From a virus (lineage: Duplodnaviria; Caudoviricetes), in IMG/VR virus record IMGVR_UViG_3300033148_006568, positions 1 through 41,657 of that record: a DNA stretch of 41,657 nucleotides. One strand, given 5' to 3'. The first letter of the stretch is position 1. Each line of letters opens with the position of its first letter. The notes below the pieces were generated by a model that made no database searches, was not told where the DNA came from, and was given only the letters and a program-made list of their open reading frames with translations. Of the stretch, positions 6,929 to 16,320 are shown piece by piece. The position numbers and the translations under genes are program-made.

Positions 6929-6997
6929 ATAGTCATACAAGAAGCAGGCGGTGATATGACAATGGCGTTTTAACCATCTTTTAATCCGACCTGCTCA
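6929..6997 (+). ncRNA. Pseudoknot-like element copy 1
   Basis: GTCATA 6932/TATGAC 6955 stem; loop AGCAGGCGG 6943 pairs with CCGACCTGCT 6986; duplicated at 7647-7759. Confidence 0.5.
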
Positions 6998-7177
6998 CTT
7001 AAGCCCCCAATCTGGTCTAGAACTAGTTAAGTCAGGTTGAATGAACTGCTGGGGGCATTCATAGTCTCATAAAACGACAGCTGTACGCCATGAGGCGCTG
7101 ACACCCAGGAAAGACTGGGATTTTATGTTCCACTTCCCGTTGAACACGGAAGTAATCAAAATGAAAAAAGAAACAGA

Positions 7178-7646: not shown

Positions 7647-7759
7647 ATAGTCATACAGAAGAACATCTTTGATGTTCATCGTTCACATCTTCCTGATGTG
7701 AGCAAGCAGGCGGTGATATGACAAAAAGGTAAGTTAATCAGACTTACCCGACCTGCTCA
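7647..7759 (+). ncRNA. Pseudoknot-like element copy 2, with two inserted hairpins
   Basis: Same core AAGCAGGCGGTGATATGACAA...CCGACCTGCTCA as copy 1. Confidence 0.5.
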
Positions 7760-8038
7760 TTTATAATCAAAATGAAAAAAGAACAAGTATCACAAGAACT
7801 TTTTGAAAATATTGAACATCAAATAGGAAAACCAAAAGAACCTCTTGCTGTTGGTTATACAGTTGAAGAAGGAATTTATGTTTTTGGCTTGATGTTGCCG
7901 TTTAAAATTAAAAAGGTTTTTGGAAAATGAAACAAAATCATATTGCCAACAAAATAAAAACACCCGAAAAGAGTTTCTTTAAAAATTCACTTTTTTTCAT
8001 CAAAACAGGGGGAGCTGGTTTTGTTGGCATAATTTAAA

Positions 8039-8368
8039 ATGACATCAGAAATACAACAAGAATTAGAGGAGAATTTAAGGCATATACAGAGACTAATTGC
8101 AAAACAAGAATTTTCTGTTGGAGATGCTAATTCATTTTTATTAAGATATGGGAACTTTGCTTTAAAGATGGAAGAGTTGGAGAAATCAAGAGATTTATTG
8201 GGAGAAACTAAAATGAAAAGTAGCAATATAACTCCACAGGAAATAGGGGGGTTGTTTATAGATGGTAAAACAAGTAAATTAAATGGGGGGTGTTTCCAGT
8301 GGAAAGTAGGTATAACATATATTAAATCCAATTTCACCACCTTCCTCGCAAGAGGGGAGCAACTATGA
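8039..8368 (+). CDS. Hypothetical protein reading through the first cassette junction
   Basis: ORF track; internal GGAGAAACTAAAATG at 8201-8215; stop overlaps the ATG of the HD gene. Confidence 0.5.
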   Translation: MTSEIQQELEENLRHIQRLIAKQEFSVGDANSFLLRYGNFALKMEELEKSRDLLGETKMKSSNITPQEIGGLFIDGKTSKLNGGCFQWKVGITYIKSNFTTFLARGEQL

Positions 8369-8829
8369 TGGAAGATAAAATAAAAAGAGCCGAAGAAATT
8401 GCAAGAGAAGTCCATAAAGGACAAAAAAGAACAATTGGTAGGAGAGAAGATTATATTGAACATCCTAAGAGAGTTGTAAGTCATTTCTCAACTCCAGAAT
8501 CACAGATTATTGCTTGGTTGCATGATGTCTTAGAAGATTCAGATTTAACATCTAATGATTTATTTAATAGAGGAATAGATACAGAATTAGTAAGAATGAT
8601 TGTTATTTTAACAAGAGATAAATCTGAATCCTATCTTAACTACATTTTAAGAATAAAACAATTCCACCAAGCAAAGATTATTAAAATTGCTGACTTGCAA
8701 GACAATCTTGAAAAACTGCCCAATGGTTCTTTAAGAGATAAATATTTAATGGCTCTTTATATTTTAGAAAATAAATCGGAAGGTGGTGAAACTTTGGCTA
8801 ACGCCAATCCTTCGGAGGATTTAATATGA
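8365..8829 (+). CDS. HD-domain hydrolase (RelA/SpoT-hydrolase/Mesh1-like); cassette A
   Basis: HKGQKR, YIEHP, AWLHDVLED, KIADLQDN motifs. Confidence 0.85.
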   Translation: MMEDKIKRAEEIAREVHKGQKRTIGRREDYIEHPKRVVSHFSTPESQIIAWLHDVLEDSDLTSNDLFNRGIDTELVRMIVILTRDKSESYLNYILRIKQFHQAKIIKIADLQDNLEKLPNGSLRDKYLMALYILENKSEGGETLANANPSEDLI

Positions 8830-8897
8830 GTTATAAGACTACGCTTCGCTCCGTCCATATTTTTGCTAACGCAAAAACATCTCATAACTCTAATATT
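8817..8897. repeat. attC-like site 1
   Basis: GGATTTAAT-ATGA-GTTATAAG...CTCATAAC-TCTAAT-ATT with internal hairpins; nearly identical to site 5. Confidence 0.8.
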
Positions 8898-8952
8898 CAC
8901 CAAAATTTTCCCTTTGCCCTCGTTGGCTCGGGTAAATCCTCACACTCAATTA

Positions 8953-9165
8953 AAATGCTTCCCTTAACAGAAGTTAAAGGAAATTTGAAAATATAAAATG
9001 CAAAGTCACCAACTAAACGCCTTATTTATGGAAAGACCACCTGTAAAAGTTGCAACTTCCCAAATTTGTTCCGATTTGGTTTATGGTAAGTCTGGGAGCA
9101 TTGTTGGTGACCCCTCGTTCATAAAAACCATGGTTGCGAGGGTTATATTTTCAAACTACGCATTT
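8953..9165 (+). ncRNA. Highly structured, probably non-coding cargo of cassette B
   Basis: Nested stems 8984-8996/9143-9155, 9005-9013/9103-9111, 9112-9117/9137-9142, 9057-9066/9088-9097. Confidence 0.5.
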
Positions 9166-9213
9166 CAAAGTGTATCGGACAAAGGGAAAACTCAAGCAGA
9201 ACTTCGTTCTGTC

Positions 9214-9294
9214 GGTGAATATCCGTTTAGTAACTCAGCCCTTGCAGGACTTCGTCCGAATTTTGCTTCGCAAAACTCTACTAAACTAAATATT
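9214..9294. repeat. attC-like site 2
   Basis: GGTGAAT-ATCC-GTTTAGTA...TACTAAAC-TAAAT-ATT with CTTCG-loop hairpins. Confidence 0.75.
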
Positions 9295-9347
9295 CACAGC
9301 AGGAAGAACAAATTTAAAAAAATGCTCGTTAGAGAGGAGAAACTATT

Positions 9348-9656
9348 ATGAATCAAGAAACATCATCTTTCAAGAAAATAATTTGCACAAGCGAAGGAGA
9401 AAGACTTTGGTTTGCTGAAAAGTTTGAAGATAGCAAAACAAAAGTCTATGAAGTTTATAATCAAAGTAGAAATGAATTACTGGGGAAAATAGAAAGAGTG
9501 CGAAATGGAACTTGGATGCACTGGAGTTTTGTAATTCCTTTATACTTAATAATTGATTGTGCAAATAAAGAACAATTTTTAACATATAGTCCAGGATGTC
9601 TTGATGAAATTAGAGAATTTTGTAAAAAATTGAATGGGAGAAAGAAAGATGATTAA
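9348..9656 (+). CDS. Hypothetical protein; cassette C
   Basis: ORF track; SD GAGGAG upstream; bounded by cassette arms. Confidence 0.75.
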   Translation: MNQETSSFKKIICTSEGERLWFAEKFEDSKTKVYEVYNQSRNELLGKIERVRNGTWMHWSFVIPLYLIIDCANKEQFLTYSPGCLDEIREFCKKLNGRKKDD

Positions 9657-9680
9657 TAGTAATCGCATTTTTTTAAACTT

Positions 9681-9783
9681 CTGTGAATATCAGTTTAAAG
9701 GAAATTACAATAGTTTTTGTAATTTCCTAAATCCGTGCGATGTCGGACGGTATACCGCACGGACTTCTTTAAACGCCAATATT
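9681..9783. repeat. attC-like site 3
   Basis: CTGTGAAT-ATCA-GTTTAAAG...CTTTAAAC-GCCAAT-ATT with two internal hairpins. Confidence 0.75.
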
Positions 9784-9818
9784 AAACGAAATAAATGTGT
9801 CCGCCTCCCAGCGTTATA

Positions 9819-10781
9819 ATGGAAACCAATAAGATTTACAATATGGAATGTGTAGAGGGAATGAAACAGAAGATTCCTGACGATTCAATTAATTTAGTTA
9901 TCACTTCCCCACCTTATAATGTAGGAATTGATTATGATAGTTGGAATGATAAAATGGAATGGAATGACTATTTAGAATTTGCGAAAAATTGGCTTTCAGA
10001 AGTTTATCGCTGTTTAAAGAAAGATGGAAGAATTGCCTTAAACATTCCTTATGAAATTAATGTTATGGAAAGAGGGGGCAGAATTTTCATCGTTGCTGAA
10101 TACTGGAAGATAATGCAAGAAGTTGGATTTAAGTTTGCAGGAATAGTTGATTTACAAGAAATCCAACCTCAACGAGTAAAATTAACTGCTTGGGGAAGTT
10201 GGCTTAAAGCATCTGCCCCATATATTTATAATCCAAAGGAATGTGTTATAATTGCTTACAAAGAAGAGTGGAAGAAACAAGGCGACGGCAATTCTTATTT
10301 TACTGACAGCGATAAACACAAAGAAGAATTTAAAGAACTTGTTTACGGAATGTGGAAATATAGAGCCGAAACAAGAGGATTAACAAAAGCCAATTTTTCT
10401 TATGACATTCCATTAAAAGCATTAAAGATTTTATCATTCCAAGAAGATATTGTCCTTGACCCATTTATAGGAAGTGGAACAACCGCAGAAGCGTGTATAA
10501 GATTGAATCGTCAGTATATTGGTTTTGAAATTAGTAAATCTTATTGTAATACTATGAAATGTAGAACTGAACAGGAGAGACTATCGGCGGACACATTTAC
10601 TCAAAATCCTACGGATTTTGGTTCGGATAAACCGAACTCGTTTAATATGGGTGATAAGGTTACGGCTACGCCTTCACCCAAATTAAAACAAGAAGTTTTA
10701 ACTTCTCATCACCCAAATATTAAATCCAATTTTGATTTGATGCTCCAAGCGGGGTTCAACAAACCAGAGGTTAAAAAATGA
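9819..10781 (+). CDS. N6/N4 DNA methyltransferase (beta class); cassette D
   Basis: TSPPY catalytic motif precedes VLDPFIGSGTT; probable start METNK at 9819; C-terminal tail reads through site 4. Confidence 0.9.
   Translation: METNKIYNMECVEGMKQKIPDDSINLVITSPPYNVGIDYDSWNDKMEWNDYLEFAKNWLSEVYRCLKKDGRIALNIPYEINVMERGGRIFIVAEYWKIMQEVGFKFAGIVDLQEIQPQRVKLTAWGSWLKASAPYIYNPKECVIIAYKEEWKKQGDGNSYFTDSDKHKEEFKELVYGMWKYRAETRGLTKANFSYDIPLKALKILSFQEDIVLDPFIGSGTTAEACIRLNRQYIGFEISKSYCNTMKCRTEQERLSADTFTQNPTDFGSDKPNSFNMGDKVTATPSPKLKQEVLTSHHPNIKSNFDLMLQAGFNKPEVKK
10638..10721. repeat. attC-like site 4
   Basis: TCGTTTAAT-ATGG-GTGATAAG...CTCATCAC-CCAAAT-ATT; closely related to site 7. Confidence 0.8.
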
Positions 10782-11335
10782 CAAAAGAAAAATTCATATT
10801 AGATGCTTGTTGTGGGGGAAGAATGTTTTGGAAGAACAAAAATCATCCTAACGCAATCTATCAAGATATAAGAAAAGATGTTCTTCCACTTAAAGAACAA
10901 TATGGTATGAATTTTTCAGTTGAACCTTCACACATAGGGGATTTTAGAAAAATGGTTTTTGAAGATAAAAGTTTTAAGATGGTTATTTTTGACCCTTCTC
11001 ATTTAATGTTAAATAAAACTGCTTGGATGGCTAAGAAATATGGAACTATAAAAGATACTGATTATAAAGCAGACCTCCAAGCAGGATTTAAAGAATGTTG
11101 GAGGGTTCTTGATAATTATGGAACTTTAATCTTCAAATGGAATGACCAATCTGTAACTATAGAGAAAATAAAACCATTTTTCCCAGACGAACCAATTATT
11201 TTTAATAGAGTTGGGACAAAAGGGAAAACTACTTACTGGTTCGTCTTTATGAAAATCCCAAAAAGTATGGAGCAACTAATCGCATCAAATCAAAACTCGC
11301 CTTCGGCGTCCTCTAATGAGGAGGACTTAATATGA
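10778..11335 (+). CDS. Small phage-type SAM-dependent DNA methyltransferase; cassette E
   Basis: ILDACCGGRMFW (motif I), FDPSH (variant of DPPH), ECWRVL..GTLIFKW. Confidence 0.85.
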   Translation: MTKEKFILDACCGGRMFWKNKNHPNAIYQDIRKDVLPLKEQYGMNFSVEPSHIGDFRKMVFEDKSFKMVIFDPSHLMLNKTAWMAKKYGTIKDTDYKADLQAGFKECWRVLDNYGTLIFKWNDQSVTIEKIKPFFPDEPIIFNRVGTKGKTTYWFVFMKIPKSMEQLIASNQNSPSASSNEEDLI

Positions 11336-11403
11336 GTTATAAGACTACGCTTCGCTCCGTCCATATTTTCTCTGACGAGAAAACATCTCATCACTCTAAT
11401 ATT
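11323..11403. repeat. attC-like site 5
   Basis: GGACTTAAT-ATGA-GTTATAAG...CTCATCAC-TCTAAT-ATT. Confidence 0.8.
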
Positions 11404-11450
11404 AAATCCAATCGGAAGGAGTTGCTCCAAGCAGGGAGATTAGAATAAAA

Positions 11451-11996
11451 ATGGTTAAAACAAAACAAAAAATAAAATTTGAAAGAATAGTTAAATTTTC
11501 TCAACCCTTCGATAAACGAAGTGATATTAGAGGAGAAAATTATGGAATTGGTTCAATGAGAATTTGGTTTATTTTAAAAGGAAGACATGGTGCAGTTCAA
11601 GTTTGTTTTAATACACCTTTTTATTTACCAAAAACTATTGATGAATATAAAAGAATTGGAAATAAAAATAAAACAATTCCATCAGATATAAGAGATGAAG
11701 ATGGAAAAGCTAAAGGTTTTGATTGTTGGGATGTTGGGTATCATAGTCCTAAACCAATGTTTGAAGGACAAACAAAAACTGATTGTGACCTACTAAGAAA
11801 AGGTTTTTGTTATTATGATGGAAGTGGATTAAGGGGAAATAATGATGGGTTGCCCGAATTGTTTTATGAAAAAGGTGATGAAGCAATTTGGGAATACTTA
11901 GAAGATTATTATTATGAGATATTTAATATTGAGCAACTAATCACAACTCCTTCCGACTCTGCTACGCAGTCCGATAAATCGGAGGATTTAATATGA
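11451..11996 (+). CDS. Hypothetical protein; cassette F
   Basis: ORF track; DVGYHSPKP..C..CYYDGS motif; ends EDLI* inside the site. Confidence 0.8.
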   Translation: MVKTKQKIKFERIVKFSQPFDKRSDIRGENYGIGSMRIWFILKGRHGAVQVCFNTPFYLPKTIDEYKRIGNKNKTIPSDIRDEDGKAKGFDCWDVGYHSPKPMFEGQTKTDCDLLRKGFCYYDGSGLRGNNDGLPELFYEKGDEAIWEYLEDYYYEIFNIEQLITTPSDSATQSDKSEDLI

Positions 11997-12060
11997 ATTT
12001 AATCACTCGTTACACTCGTCCCAATTTTCACTTCGTGAAAACTGAATTAAATCCTTAATT
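11984..12060. repeat. attC-like site 6
   Basis: GGATTTAAT-ATGA-ATTTAAT...ATTAAAT-CCTTA-ATT. Confidence 0.7.
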
Positions 12061-12122
12061 AAATCCAATTCAGACGGGGGGTTCCAAACTTTGAGCAACT
12101 CTGTGGAAGTTGGGAGAAACTA

Positions 12123-12317
12123 ATGGCAATAAAATATAAAACAACTAAAAAAAGAATACAATTAAGAAGAAAAATGAAATGTTCAAATCCAAAATGCAAT
12201 AAGGAAATAGATAAATATCTTGATGGCAATGAAGATGCAGAAGGAAATAAATATTGTGCAGATTGTATTGCTAAACTACAACTTATTGTAAAACAAACAG
12301 GAGAATACTATGATTAA
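12123..12317 (+). CDS. Small Zn-finger-like protein; cassette G
   Basis: CSNPKC...YCADC; leader GGGAGAAACTAATG. Confidence 0.65.
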   Translation: MAIKYKTTKKRIQLRRKMKCSNPKCNKEIDKYLDGNEDAEGNKYCADCIAKLQLIVKQTGEYYD

Positions 12318-12401
12318 GGAGTATTATAAAACGATACTATATATGATTATATATGAAAATCAAGAAAAACTAAAATTCGGAGAAGTTGTATATAACCATA
12401 T

Positions 12402-13103
12402 ATGAAAATGAAAAAATATAAAACAATATTAGCAGACCCATGTTGGCAACAAAAAATGGCAGGAAAGTATGCTACAAGGCATAAAAGAATTAGAAATCTT
12501 CCTTATCCAACTATGAGTGTAGAAGAAATTAAAAAACTTCCAGTAGGTGAATTAGCAGAAGAAGGATGTCATTTATGGTTGTGGACTACAAACCAATTTT
12601 TGAAAGAAGCATTTGAAGTTATGGAATCATGGGGTTTTAAATATCTTTCAACAATCACATGGGTTAAACCATCAGGTTGTGGGAATTGGTTTGTGTCAAG
12701 AACACAACATTGTTTATTTGGTTATAAGGATAAATGTAAGTTTAATAAAGAGAGATATAAACCAACTGTATTCTTTGCTAATATTCCAAAAAGACATTCA
12801 GAGAAACCAATAGAATTTTATGATTTAATTGAGAGTATATCTTCTGAAAAGAGATTAGAATTATTTGCAAGAAACAAAAGAGAAGGATGGGATGCTTGGG
12901 GAAATGAAGTAAAAAGCGATGTTCAACTATCACCCCCCGTCAGAACTTCGGAAGAACCGACTTTGGAAAAACCAAAGGGATTTAATATGGGTGATAAAGT
13001 TACGGCTACGCCTTCACCCAAATCGCCTTCGGCGACTTCTCATCACCCTAATATTAGGAGAAATTCGGGCACACCCCTTAAAAGTATGGAGCAACTAAAA
13101 TGA
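12402..13103 (+). CDS. MT-A70 family N6-adenine methyltransferase; cassette G
   Basis: ILADPCW (DPPW variant), YPTM, LWLWTTN, WGF, HSEKP, ELFAR..GWDAWGNE. Confidence 0.9.
   Translation: MKMKKYKTILADPCWQQKMAGKYATRHKRIRNLPYPTMSVEEIKKLPVGELAEEGCHLWLWTTNQFLKEAFEVMESWGFKYLSTITWVKPSGCGNWFVSRTQHCLFGYKDKCKFNKERYKPTVFFANIPKRHSEKPIEFYDLIESISSEKRLELFARNKREGWDAWGNEVKSDVQLSPPVRTSEEPTLEKPKGFNMGDKVTATPSPKSPSATSHHPNIRRNSGTPLKSMEQLK
12978..13055. repeat. attC-like site 7
   Basis: GGATTTAAT-ATGG-GTGATAAAG...CTCATCAC-CCTAAT-ATT. Confidence 0.8.
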
Positions 13104-14158
13104 AAGATAAATTATTAAATGAAATGATTGAAAAGAAGTTTATCTCTGTCCAGAAACATCTAACAGAAGATTTATTTATTTATAATTATACAAAAAATGC
13201 TCAATATAAATGGATTTGGAATGAAGCAACAAAAAAATGTAGAGGATTAATTTTAAATTCTTCTATGAAAATAATTTCTAATCCTTTTGAGAAGTTCTTT
13301 AATTTGGAAGAATTAGATAATAAAAAACAGAAAATTCCAAATGAGTCTTTTGAAGTTTATGAAAAGGTTGATGGTTCTTTGGGGATTTTATATTGGATAG
13401 GAGATATTCCAATGATTGCAACTCGTGGTTCTTTTGTTTCAGAACAAGCACAAGAAGGGACTAAAATGCTTTTAGAAAAATATAAAGATACTTGGAATAA
13501 ATTAGATAAATCAAAAACTTATCTATTCGAAATTATTTATCCAGAAAACAGAATTGTTATAGATTATGGAGATTTGAAGGAATTAAAACTACTTGCAATT
13601 AAAGATACTAAAACAGGAAATGAATTGCCTTTAGAAAATATTGGTTTCCCAATTGTAAAAAGATTTGATGAAATAGAAGATTTTAGGAAATTAAAAGAAT
13701 TAGAAGACTTAGAAGAAGAAAATAAAGAAGGTTTTGTGATTAAATTTAAATCAGGATTTAGAATGAAAGTAAAATTTGAAGAATATAAGAGATTACACAG
13801 AATCTTTACAAATATTTCAAATAAGTCTGTCTGGGAAATACTTAAAGATGGAGGGGATTTTAAAGAAATAATAGAAAGAGTTCCAGATGAATTTTTTGAT
13901 TGGTTAAATAAAACAAGAGAAGATTTGTTAAGAAAATATAAACAAATAGAAAATATTTCAAAAGAACAATATCGTAGCTCAGAAGAATTTAATTCAATGC
14001 AAAAGTTTGCAGAATATACTTTAAAACAATCTTATCCAACAATTTTATTTAAAATGAAGAATCGGAAAGATTATTCAGAATTTATTTGGAAAATAATAAA
14101 ACCAACATATTCTAAACCATTCAAAAGAGATATAGATGAGATGGAGGAACAGAAATGA
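13100..14158 (+). CDS. T4 Rnl1-like RNA ligase; cassette H
   Basis: CRGLI, PFEKFFN, EKVDGS (motif I), TRGSF, FEII, EGFVIK, KVKFEEY. Confidence 0.9.
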   Translation: MKDKLLNEMIEKKFISVQKHLTEDLFIYNYTKNAQYKWIWNEATKKCRGLILNSSMKIISNPFEKFFNLEELDNKKQKIPNESFEVYEKVDGSLGILYWIGDIPMIATRGSFVSEQAQEGTKMLLEKYKDTWNKLDKSKTYLFEIIYPENRIVIDYGDLKELKLLAIKDTKTGNELPLENIGFPIVKRFDEIEDFRKLKELEDLEEENKEGFVIKFKSGFRMKVKFEEYKRLHRIFTNISNKSVWEILKDGGDFKEIIERVPDEFFDWLNKTREDLLRKYKQIENISKEQYRSSEEFNSMQKFAEYTLKQSYPTILFKMKNRKDYSEFIWKIIKPTYSKPFKRDIDEMEEQK

Positions 14159-14216
14159 TTTGTGCAACTAAACGGGGTGTGTCCGAACTCAAATGATAAA
14201 TCATTTGCCCTACGGG

Positions 14217-14291
14217 TCTGATAATATGGATTTAAAGAAAACAGGAAGTTTTCCAAATTCAACTTCGTTGAACCTCTTTAAATCAAATATT
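14217..14291. repeat. attC-like site 8
   Basis: TCTGATAAT-ATGG-ATTTAAAG...CTTTAAAT-CAAAT-ATT. Confidence 0.75.
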
Positions 14292-14336
14292 TCACAGACT
14301 TCGTCCAAATTTAAAAAAATGCTCCACAGCTAAAAA

Positions 14337-14832: not shown

Positions 14833-15423
14833 ATGGCACAAAAGAGAATTGATTACATAAGTTTTGAAGAATTTAGGAAATTATATTCGGCAGAGAAAAA
14901 TAAAAAAATGAAATTAATTATTCTTCTTGGGTTTGGTTCTGGATTAAGAATAAGTGAAATTATTGGATACCAAAGAAAGTTTAAAAGAAAAACAAATAAG
15001 GAAACAAAACAAATAGAATTTATTACAGATCATTCTAAAATTCCCGCATTAAAAAAGGAAATGGTTTTTTTAAAAGACCATCAAATAAGATTAGATGATG
15101 GTAAGGGTGGAAAGTGGAGGACAACAGTAACTCCTCCAGCATTAACAGAACCAATGTTGAATTTACTTCCAATAAAAATTCCAAGAAGAACCATTCAATA
15201 TAAATTTGAACAATTAAGTAAAAAAGTTCTTGGAAAGAGAATGTCAATACATACTTTAAGACATGGATTTGGAAATTACCAGGTTAATGTTTTAAGAGTT
15301 CCACTTCCCATTGTTCAACAACTTATGGGTCACTCAAGATTAGATACTACCGGAATTTATACTAAAGCAAATCCAGAACAAGCTATTGCTGAAAGTTGGA
15401 AAGCTATGGAGGGAAGAAAATGA
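14833..15423 (+). CDS. Tyrosine recombinase (catalytic domain only)
   Basis: GLRISE (R), KGGK (K), HTLRH (HxxR), LMGHS (H), TGIY (Y); 196 aa, no N-terminal binding domain. Confidence 0.92.
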   Translation: MAQKRIDYISFEEFRKLYSAEKNKKMKLIILLGFGSGLRISEIIGYQRKFKRKTNKETKQIEFITDHSKIPALKKEMVFLKDHQIRLDDGKGGKWRTTVTPPALTEPMLNLLPIKIPRRTIQYKFEQLSKKVLGKRMSIHTLRHGFGNYQVNVLRVPLPIVQQLMGHSRLDTTGIYTKANPEQAIAESWKAMEGRK

Positions 15424-15646: not shown

Positions 15647-16033
15647 ATGGGTTTTTTAACAAAAAATAAAAAAGTAACCAAAGAACCAGCTGAAGAAGAA
15701 GTTGTTGAAGAAGAAGTTGAAGAAAAAAATGAAGAAGATAAGGTTGAAGAAGAAACTGAAAAAAAGGAAAAACAAAAAACAAAGACAGTTGTTGTAAAAG
15801 AACAAGAGCCCCCAATAATTTGGCAAATGTTTATGGTTTTAATTGTTTCAATAATTATTGCTATTGGAATGGCTTTTCCATTTTGGATTTTTGGATTTAA
15901 ATTACCAAGTGATTTTGTTGGTGAGATTGTATTTGTAGTTTTGTTTATGGGTAGTTTTACTCTAAGTGTTGTTATTTCTTCATTTATAGTTTATTCAAAT
16001 CCTTTCAAAAAGAATCAAAAGGAGGTAAATTAA
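15647..16033 (+). CDS. Acidic N-terminus plus two-TM membrane protein
   Basis: SD GGAGGTGA; N-terminus duplicated in the next gene. Confidence 0.75.
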   Translation: MGFLTKNKKVTKEPAEEEVVEEEVEEKNEEDKVEEETEKKEKQKTKTVVVKEQEPPIIWQMFMVLIVSIIIAIGMAFPFWIFGFKLPSDFVGEIVFVVLFMGSFTLSVVISSFIVYSNPFKKNQKEVN

Positions 16034-16035
16034 AA

Positions 16036-16320
16036 ATGGGTTTTTTAACAAAAAATAAAAAAGTAATAAAAAAAGTAACCAAAGAACCAGCTGAAGAAGA
16101 AGTTGTTGAAGAAGAGGAAGTTGTTGAAGAAGAAGTTGAAGAAAAAAATGAAGAAGATAAGGTTGAAGAAGAAACTGAAAAAAAGGAAAAACAAAAAACA
16201 AAGACAGTTGTTGTAAAAGAACTACCAACCCAAGTTGTCAGAGAAACAACTGCCGAAGATGGAACATTAATATATTTCATGACAGTTGAAGAAGCACTTA
16301 CACAAGCTATTAACTTATAA
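16036..16320 (+). CDS. Acidic protein sharing its N-terminus with 15647
   Basis: SD GGAGGT; DNA duplication about 15628-15803 / 16018-16222. Confidence 0.75.
   Translation: MGFLTKNKKVIKKVTKEPAEEEVVEEEEVVEEEVEEKNEEDKVEEETEKKEKQKTKTVVVKELPTQVVRETTAEDGTLIYFMTVEEALTQAINL

Follow-up and report, generated by a model that had tools for sequence, protein, structure and literature searches.

An integron-like array of self-pairing gene cassettes in a virus, and its counterparts in likely host archaea

The cassette array and its self-pairing ends

The DNA analysed here, called the window, is the complete virus record IMGVR_UViG_3300033148_006568 (41,657 nt, with a 114-bp terminal repeat). Within a run of small co-oriented genes it carries an integron-like array of eight gene cassettes, A to H, each of which has a head and a tail that can pair with one another. 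Comparison of contigs indicates that the array is real and mobile; its mechanism is what we infer from the sequences.

All features at the locus are on the plus strand. The array is preceded by a resident open reading frame (ORF; 8039..8368, possibly starting at 8213), which continues in frame through the first site and stops on the start codon of the cassette A gene. This site (8305..8332) is attI-like and dif-shaped: an 11-nt arm ending in AA, a 6-nt spacer and a TT-arm, with a crossover that would fall between 8321 and 8322. Cassette A (8322..8895) encodes an HD-type phosphohydrolase (8365-8829) and has outer arms at 8332-8345/8778-8791 and an R box at 8322/8817-8824. Cassette B (8896..9292; arms 8906-8916/9180-9190) has no recognised gene, and its ORF at 8998-9351 extends into cassette C (9293..9781; arms 9313-9325/9665-9677), which holds an ORF of 102 amino acids (aa; 9348-9656). 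Cassette D (9782..10719; arms 9792-9805/10586-10599) encodes an N6/N4 DNA methyltransferase (9819-10781), cassette E (10720..11401; arms 10730-10743/11282-11295) a methyltransferase (10778-11335), cassette F (11402..12058; arms 11412-11424/11944-11956) a 181-aa ORF (11451-11996), and cassette G (12059..13053; arms 12073-12082/12932-12941) a 64-aa ORF (12123-12317) followed by an MT-A70 methyltransferase (12402-13103). Cassette H (13054..14289) encodes a T4 Rnl1-like RNA ligase (13100-14158). The array ends in a ninth head (14290..14336), which has a C-type arm at 14310-14322 and no matching tail nearby, and 550 bp downstream lies a gene for a tyrosine recombinase of 196 aa that consists of the catalytic domain only (14833..15423; PF00589). 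A sequence-only reading of this DNA had described the array without the first site, the in-frame ORFs that cross the junctions or the recombinase gene. It had also called the cargo unrelated, which does not hold, as three of the eight modules (D, E and G) carry methyltransferase-family genes. These methyltransferases likely protect against host restriction, and phage clusters of attC sites lacking integrases (CALINs) are likewise marked by methyltransferases (Qi et al. 2023, PMC9892861).

All eight pairings between a head and its own tail that had been described from sequence alone are present, exactly where they had been placed or a few bases away. Outer arms of 13-14 bp had been claimed throughout; the longest perfect complement between the head arm and its own tail does reach 14 bp in A, D and E and 13 bp in C and F, but only 11 bp in B, 10 bp in G and 8 bp in H. 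Against the tails of other modules, the head arms pair over at most 8 bp in 55 of 56 combinations (10 bp in the other), and among 3000 random pairs from the window two reached 13 bp and none 14. The arms had also been said to differ for every cassette and yet to covary: heads do covary with their tails, but the outer arm of C recurs in the ninth head at 14290. Three cassettes, B, E and H, have an imperfect R box. Folding of each tail joined to its own head, a check proposed in that reading, gave -31 to -49 kcal/mol for the minus strand, with z from -5.7 to -10.7 (60 dinucleotide shuffles each), and the own head outperformed the eight other heads in eight of eight cassettes.

From its outer arm onward, each tail runs through two hairpins, an R stem ending in AA, a 6-nt spacer, an L stem, two hairpins, the returning L stem and a 7-8-nt spacer; the head then supplies TT, the remainder of the 11-nt arm and the outer arm. 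The site plan drawn earlier stands in its general layout and is better put as arm-AA, 6-nt spacer, inner stem, two hairpins, inner stem, 7-8-nt spacer, TT-arm. Imperfect palindrome, R and L boxes, unpaired central spacer and an own head that completes the R box are all present. The AAT/ATT core is found in all eight window sites, as had been claimed, and RYYYAAC or GTTRRRY in none. No constant bulge stands out in the L stem: an unbroken L run of 6-8 bp occurs in 4/8 viral sites and in 25/41 sites of the host arrays described below, and one of 4 bp in 3/8 and 12/41, counts that depend on the register.

Loops of the GNA and GNNA type make very stable mini-hairpins in DNA. In the frames, that is, the heads and tails around the cargo (1,605 nt), the minus strand holds 14 c(GNA)g and three c(GNNA)g hairpins and the plus strand three c(GNNA)g, while the other 40,052 nt have a single such hairpin, which is on the plus strand. 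Among the observations, it is this signature of stable-DNA loops on the minus strand that points to single-stranded DNA of the non-coding strand as the substrate. Integrons recombine the same (bottom, non-coding) strand (PMC8946536). The pairing could instead act on RNA, a cassette transcript folding end to end before being processed or circularised. The plus strand folds well too, and one cassette encodes an RNA ligase, but the stable-DNA loops are on the non-coding strand, no cUNCGg loop occurs in register within the frames, changes of order at the junctions are seen in DNA and ORFs pass through the structures. Thus, we consider action on RNA extremely improbable.

Reordered cassettes and reused frames in related viruses

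A gapped site pattern was searched in viral contigs. It gave 49 matches, four of which are arrays, and the strong sites read AAT..A|TT in 12 of 12 cases; three exact patterns of 20-31 nt had no match in viral contigs, and a single-protein scan likewise gave none. Gene order in the related viruses is not fixed, where a fixed order had been named as an argument against mobility. In fact, one methyltransferase cassette (92% identity over 704 nt) stands first in virus G406 and mid-array in virus G409; neither of its neighbours is the same in the two viruses, and the breaks fall at A|TT. A second cassette recurs in three records, each time after different cassettes. In L008 and L187, the end of the same resident ORF that precedes cassette A is followed, at the same point of the homologous ORF, by other cassettes. 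One public contig matches cassette D from 9780 onward, preceded by 1945 unlike bases, and a public contig joins a C-type tail to an H-type head. Among the cassettes of other viruses, the own arm measures at least 9 bp in 11/12 and the arm with the next head at most 7 bp in 11/12; the low own-arm score of one cassette is due to a truncated tail. The reordering with breaks at A|TT supports the earlier proposal of mobile cassettes recombined at ATT, with the crossover, which had been placed at the ATT boundary, now refined to A|TT, as G|TT in attC.

The frames are themselves reused, since those of B, F and H recur with different genes. The B frame is common to a host chromosome and virus L008, with other cargo in each; the F frame holds another gene in L187, and the H frame another gene in virus G406, the swap in the H frame spanning the stretch from start signal to stop signal. 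A motif, G(A/T)(G/T)CAACT, occurs seven times on the plus strand of the array (8357, 11270, 11931, 12093, 12921, 13089 and 14162) and twice on the remainder of that strand of the window; it stands at the cargo borders of heads and tails, where cargo diverges within common frames, and is found upstream of none of 41 host tails. In one public run (X10), the C-type tail (window 9667-9720) has a summed contig depth above 3000 and the C cargo a depth of about 0, a contrast implying that the C-type frame is multicopy in that sample, with many other genes.

Could homologous or micro-homologous recombination between repeated frames produce these changes of order, the folding being a relic of host-derived elements or serving expression, with no site-specific enzyme in the virus? 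Tails are up to 92% identical over 84 nt, cargo swaps within frames follow short common motifs, and L034, L102 and L163 have solo or degenerate sites. However, differences between the upstream tails do not move the breaks away from A|TT, and heads covary with tails, as in the changed R box of the L187 F frame and in a C-G to T-A change. Such covariation calls for ongoing selection on the excised form, and we hold recombination by homology to be an unlikely explanation. Solo tails or heads, which are decayed arrays, occur in the virus-like contigs L034, L046, L102 (G383:C5), L163 and L184, one of them adjoining a serine recombinase gene. The junction at L242:10770-10800 has been reduced to AA, 6 nt, TT through loss of its inner stem and resembles either a cassette fusion or a simple site built anew. 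A joint of 11334 to 8321 in one public contig was considered as a circle and rejected: four heads share that start, and the joint fits a site minus its inner stem.

Host arrays and the recombinase that would move the cassettes

The B frame matched a 511-kb contig of a genome (G117) whose order includes a Candidatus Pacearchaeota genome. This contig holds an array at about 372-391 kb, with genes for RadA, aIF-2 alpha and SRP54 near, and the array starts just upstream of a divergent gene for a XerA-like recombinase of 272 aa. The protein passes the archaeal XerA model NF040815 (234.5 against a cut-off of 220) and fails the IntI model TIGR02249 (179.5 bits, in two stretches, against a cut-off of 265), having 28 residues where IntI4 has 70, about 42 fewer at the IntI4 extra domain. 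A relative occurs in 165 of 201 genomes searched, and signs of an array, in the same polarity, lie upstream of 20 of the 30 best XerA-like loci. In a tree rooted at its midpoint, a clade of 24 joins these 20 array loci with three loci at contig ends and one without an array, and six array-less XerAs fall outside (support 100/99). As in the virus, the ends of host cassettes are self-pairing: in 26 consecutive host sites, the arm with the own head measures at least 10 bp in 16 and the arm with the next head in one.

These sites were found with a matrix detector seeded with 8 viral and 14 host sites (threshold 19; one shuffle match above it in 250 kb). It replaced a strict first detector, which saw no array in 92 recombinase loci, and a looser one that was too noisy. 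An AAT-type pattern had 21 matches across 401 archaeal genomes, as many as its reversed control (21), and among the matches listed only G154:C41 is site-like. In the G117 contig (C1), the first cassette, at about 371,820-372,075, is nearly empty, with some 60 nt inside the frame; empty frames of this kind may be cassette precursors. The cargo at 374,481-394,690 comprises a cytosine methyltransferase and then two large genes, with multi-gene blocks, some of them inverted. The shared frames suggest that the hosts of the virus are likely DPANN-type archaea. What had been read as mobile cassettes in an archaeal virus does consist of integron-like mobile cassettes, but these are common to the chromosomes of the likely host and so are not an invention of viruses only.

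Host arrays begin at a conserved dif-shaped site (11-nt arm, 6-nt spacer, TT), a short way upstream of the recombinase gene. By a matrix built from 17 such host entry sites, the first site of the window (8305-8332) ranks 7th of 83,270 positions, and the same place on the minus strand ranks first; the viral site does not adjoin a recombinase gene, unlike host entry sites. First sites of other viruses rank 2 of 4,880, 14 of 16,092 (L008) and 48 of 13,410 (L003), the L187 row, being out of register, left out of the alignment of first sites.

To explain these results we propose, with a probability of roughly 0.7, that the array belongs to a family shared with hosts and that a dedicated XerA-type recombinase of the likely host, borrowed by the virus, takes its cassettes out and puts them in as single minus strands in folded form. 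The minus strand of the site would fold, and two recombinase arms would be re-formed from its R and L stems, with an unpaired spacer of 6 x 7-8 nt between them. In the free circle, the cassette's own head would complete the R arm, and the second arm of 11-14 bp would act as a clamp. The enzyme would cut the minus strand after AA and exchange one strand with the double-stranded entry site or with another junction, and replication would resolve the product, as for attC and CTX phage. Three spacer bases beside the cut would have to match, ATA in viruses and ATG in hosts; one enzyme would serve both pools, which would stay largely apart. Heads would be held in phase with the crossover codon, ribosomes being relayed through any order of cassettes, and new cassettes would arise when the gene within an existing frame is replaced at short homologies of start and stop signals.

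The spacer address comes from comparing tails. In host tails, the bases flanking the spacers are C..G in 39/41, ATG precedes TT in 38, and AAC and GTT are both kept in 39/41; in virus-type tails they are T..A in 13/14, with ATA in 11, where four of the 14 come from contigs called virus-like by gene content alone and seed sites are among the counts. C..G against T..A is a change on both sides of a pair. For CTX phage, pairing of the spacer bases beside the cut decides the target (PMC4246890), and by analogy a single spacer base would separate the viral and host cassette pools.

As for translation, all nine heads of the window are open from the crossover ATT to a stop -4 to +3 nt from the ATG of the next ORF, compared with 59/437 background ATTs, and 8/9 junctions can also be read without a stop from an ATG that lies upstream in frame, the F tail being one base off. 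Integrons have ORF-11 and ORFs that span attC (PMC8876359), and translation of a cassette shapes downstream expression there (PMC11511950). A whole array held in one phase is something we did not meet in those parts of the integron literature on ORF-11 and attC-spanning ORFs that we drew on.

Which enzyme moves the viral cassettes? We favour the host enzyme acting in trans, an assignment we would put at about two in three. The 196-aa recombinase of the virus has 912 relatives, with R, H, R, H and Y invariant in 32/32 aligned; it scores below the cut-offs for IntI and XerA. Were it the enzyme of the array, the virus would possess a complete analogue of an integron. The gene is co-oriented with the array, its catalytic residues are intact, and pieces of frames lie 0.55-1.9 kb upstream of close relatives of it in L003, L008, L034 and L046; a separate viral enzyme would also account for the AAT/ATT core. 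However, the protein aligns to XerA over the catalytic domain alone, and frames occur at 5 of 88 loci of the small recombinase (0-4 in shuffled libraries; L086-L089 were excluded from the count as distant) and at only 2 of the 30 loci with at least 2 kb of upstream sequence, several of the loci being near-copies. In the four other array-bearing viruses, two of them complete, PF00589 has no match; one of the viruses without it has a serine resolvase and one neither. Conversely, three of three complete viruses with the small recombinase lack the site. Because two complete array-bearing viruses encode no tyrosine recombinase, the 196-aa protein is probably not the cassette enzyme and instead a viral resolvase, and the simplest reading is that the viral recombinases are interchangeable resolvases. 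We regard the virus's own enzyme as a rather unlikely mover of the cassettes. Its family has a variable insert after the catalytic arginine, of 0 to about 45 residues and cysteine-rich in the longest forms.

The sites might also amount to a CALIN of ordinary, if long, attC sites on which a genuine host IntI acts. Their core geometry is attC-like, host sites carry AAC/GTT, and CALINs are known from phages (PMC9892861) and from some Pacearchaeales: Ghaly et al. 2022 describe CALINs of 2-3 attC sites, with no IntI, in at least four of their genomes (PMC9668308). However, none of the eight viral sites has AAC or GTT, the enzyme beside the host arrays scores below the IntI cut-off and is some 42 residues short at the IntI4 extra domain, and these sites do not resemble the one attC from Pacearchaeales that Ghaly et al. 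print, a single hairpin of short, classical form. The complete viral genome has no TIGR02249 match over the cut-off. Other sites of Ghaly et al. may partly overlap with the host arrays seen here. A true host IntI seems to us very unlikely.

Several observations weigh against a borrowed host enzyme as we propose it. The window encodes a tyrosine recombinase of its own 550 bp downstream of the array, and the five frame matches among 88 loci lie mostly 0.4-1.9 kb upstream of the small recombinase in the same orientation, so that the viral enzyme stays a rival. No excised circle or empty site was seen in assembled contigs. No viral array was found to share a whole cassette, frame and cargo together, with a host array; this fits the idea of an address, though frames do recur in both. 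The address is not absolute, with A|TT at the end of two host tails and AAC at the start of one viral tail, nor is the relay universal, being present in 6/11 and 6/15 other virus-type heads and 2/38 host heads. First sites rank modestly in L003 and L008 and fit the host consensus poorly in G406 and G407. The sites that seeded the detector are included among those counted, the tree has its midpoint as only root and array labels assigned by eye, and neither a spacer match nor a provirus stands behind the assignment of the host.

We also envision, tentatively and at somewhat less than even odds, that an integron has arisen a second time, independently, in DPANN archaea out of a XerA paralogue lacking I2, and that viruses parasitise it with an entry site of their own, a private pool (ATA against ATG), a single reading phase and cassettes made by gene swaps in reusable frames.

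Elsewhere in the window lie genes for a primase-helicase and for large proteins with LamG domains, and scans of 44 and 25 window proteins recognised neither a capsid protein nor a terminase. Rfam, ARAGORN and a phage collection gave no relevant match for the window. A scan for sigma-70 promoters, in search of a cassette promoter (Pc), found fewer matches than in shuffles, with a model ill-suited to an archaeal host. Fifteen public runs hold words of the window, each fewer than 8% of them, and no RNA run is listed among the holders. Upstream of the array and outside the cassette frames lie two copies of a GC-richer, hairpin-like intergenic element (6940-7000 and 7700-7765), and at 15647-16320 there is a tandem pair of paralogous ORFs with nearly identical acidic N-termini.

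Comparison with known cassette and Xer systems

No paper describing cassette arrays linked to XerA, whether in DPANN archaea or in viruses of theirs, came up in a literature search whose scope left out most subscription journals and bioRxiv supplements. Archaeal XerA/dif shares with the arrays the enzyme family and an entry site with 11-bp arms and a 6-nt spacer (Cortez et al. 2010, PMC2958812; review PMC8371274). However, dimer resolution takes place at dif, one double-stranded site, whereas here folded sites form arrays and the enzyme belongs to a separate clade.

Elements of the CTX type, the integrative mobile elements exploiting Xer (IMEX), come close in another way: a folded single strand mimics dif for a host Xer without I2, and spacer pairing sets the target (PMC4246890, PMC7790495). 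Unlike in IMEX, the units are single gene cassettes, many of them in a stack, with a target that is located on the virus or next to the gene for the recombinase. This recombinase is a paralogue distinct from the housekeeping XerA, and the cassettes appear to re-excise. Use of a host Xer in trans would fit the arrays of complete viruses without a tyrosine recombinase and the shared motif of the entry site. Integration at the chromosomal dif by the housekeeping Xer is not supported, as host arrays adjoin a separate paralogue clade (the true dif of the hosts was not located).

As with ORF-11 and the attC-spanning ORFs of class 1 integrons (PMC8876359, PMC11511950), a short ORF runs over the crossover point here, coupling its translation to that of the following cassette. 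Unlike ORF-11, every head of the window is in one phase with the crossover codon (9/9), and the coupling would survive any reordering.

Integrons themselves are the nearest likeness. Cassettes are co-oriented, the right core belongs to the next cassette, the crossover is at N|TT, folding of the bottom strand is predicted, the host entry site lies just upstream of a divergent tyrosine recombinase gene and methyltransferases are carried in viruses, as in phage CALINs (PMC9892861). In contrast to integrons, there is no IntI or I2 domain, the core in viruses is AAT/ATT, the terminal structure is branched with GNA mini-hairpins, the L stem shows no fixed extrahelical base and a second head-to-tail arm of 11-14 bp forms in the excised form only. 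The I2 helix is considered a requirement for integron integrases to recombine folded single strands safely (PMC7790495). If our proposal is true, a widespread cassette system with a plain Xer-type enzyme would be a second solution, in which the step from Xer to IntI could be studied in living form, and the viral arrays would show viruses using a host gene-capture enzyme with an address of their own, here for reshuffling accessory genes, methyltransferases among them. Where one frame recurs with different genes, the way in which cassettes are made would, in that case, become open to direct testing. What the virus and its likely hosts would share is an integron-like gene-swapping system without the integron enzyme, set apart from integrons by the lack of IntI and, in viruses, by its core triplets.

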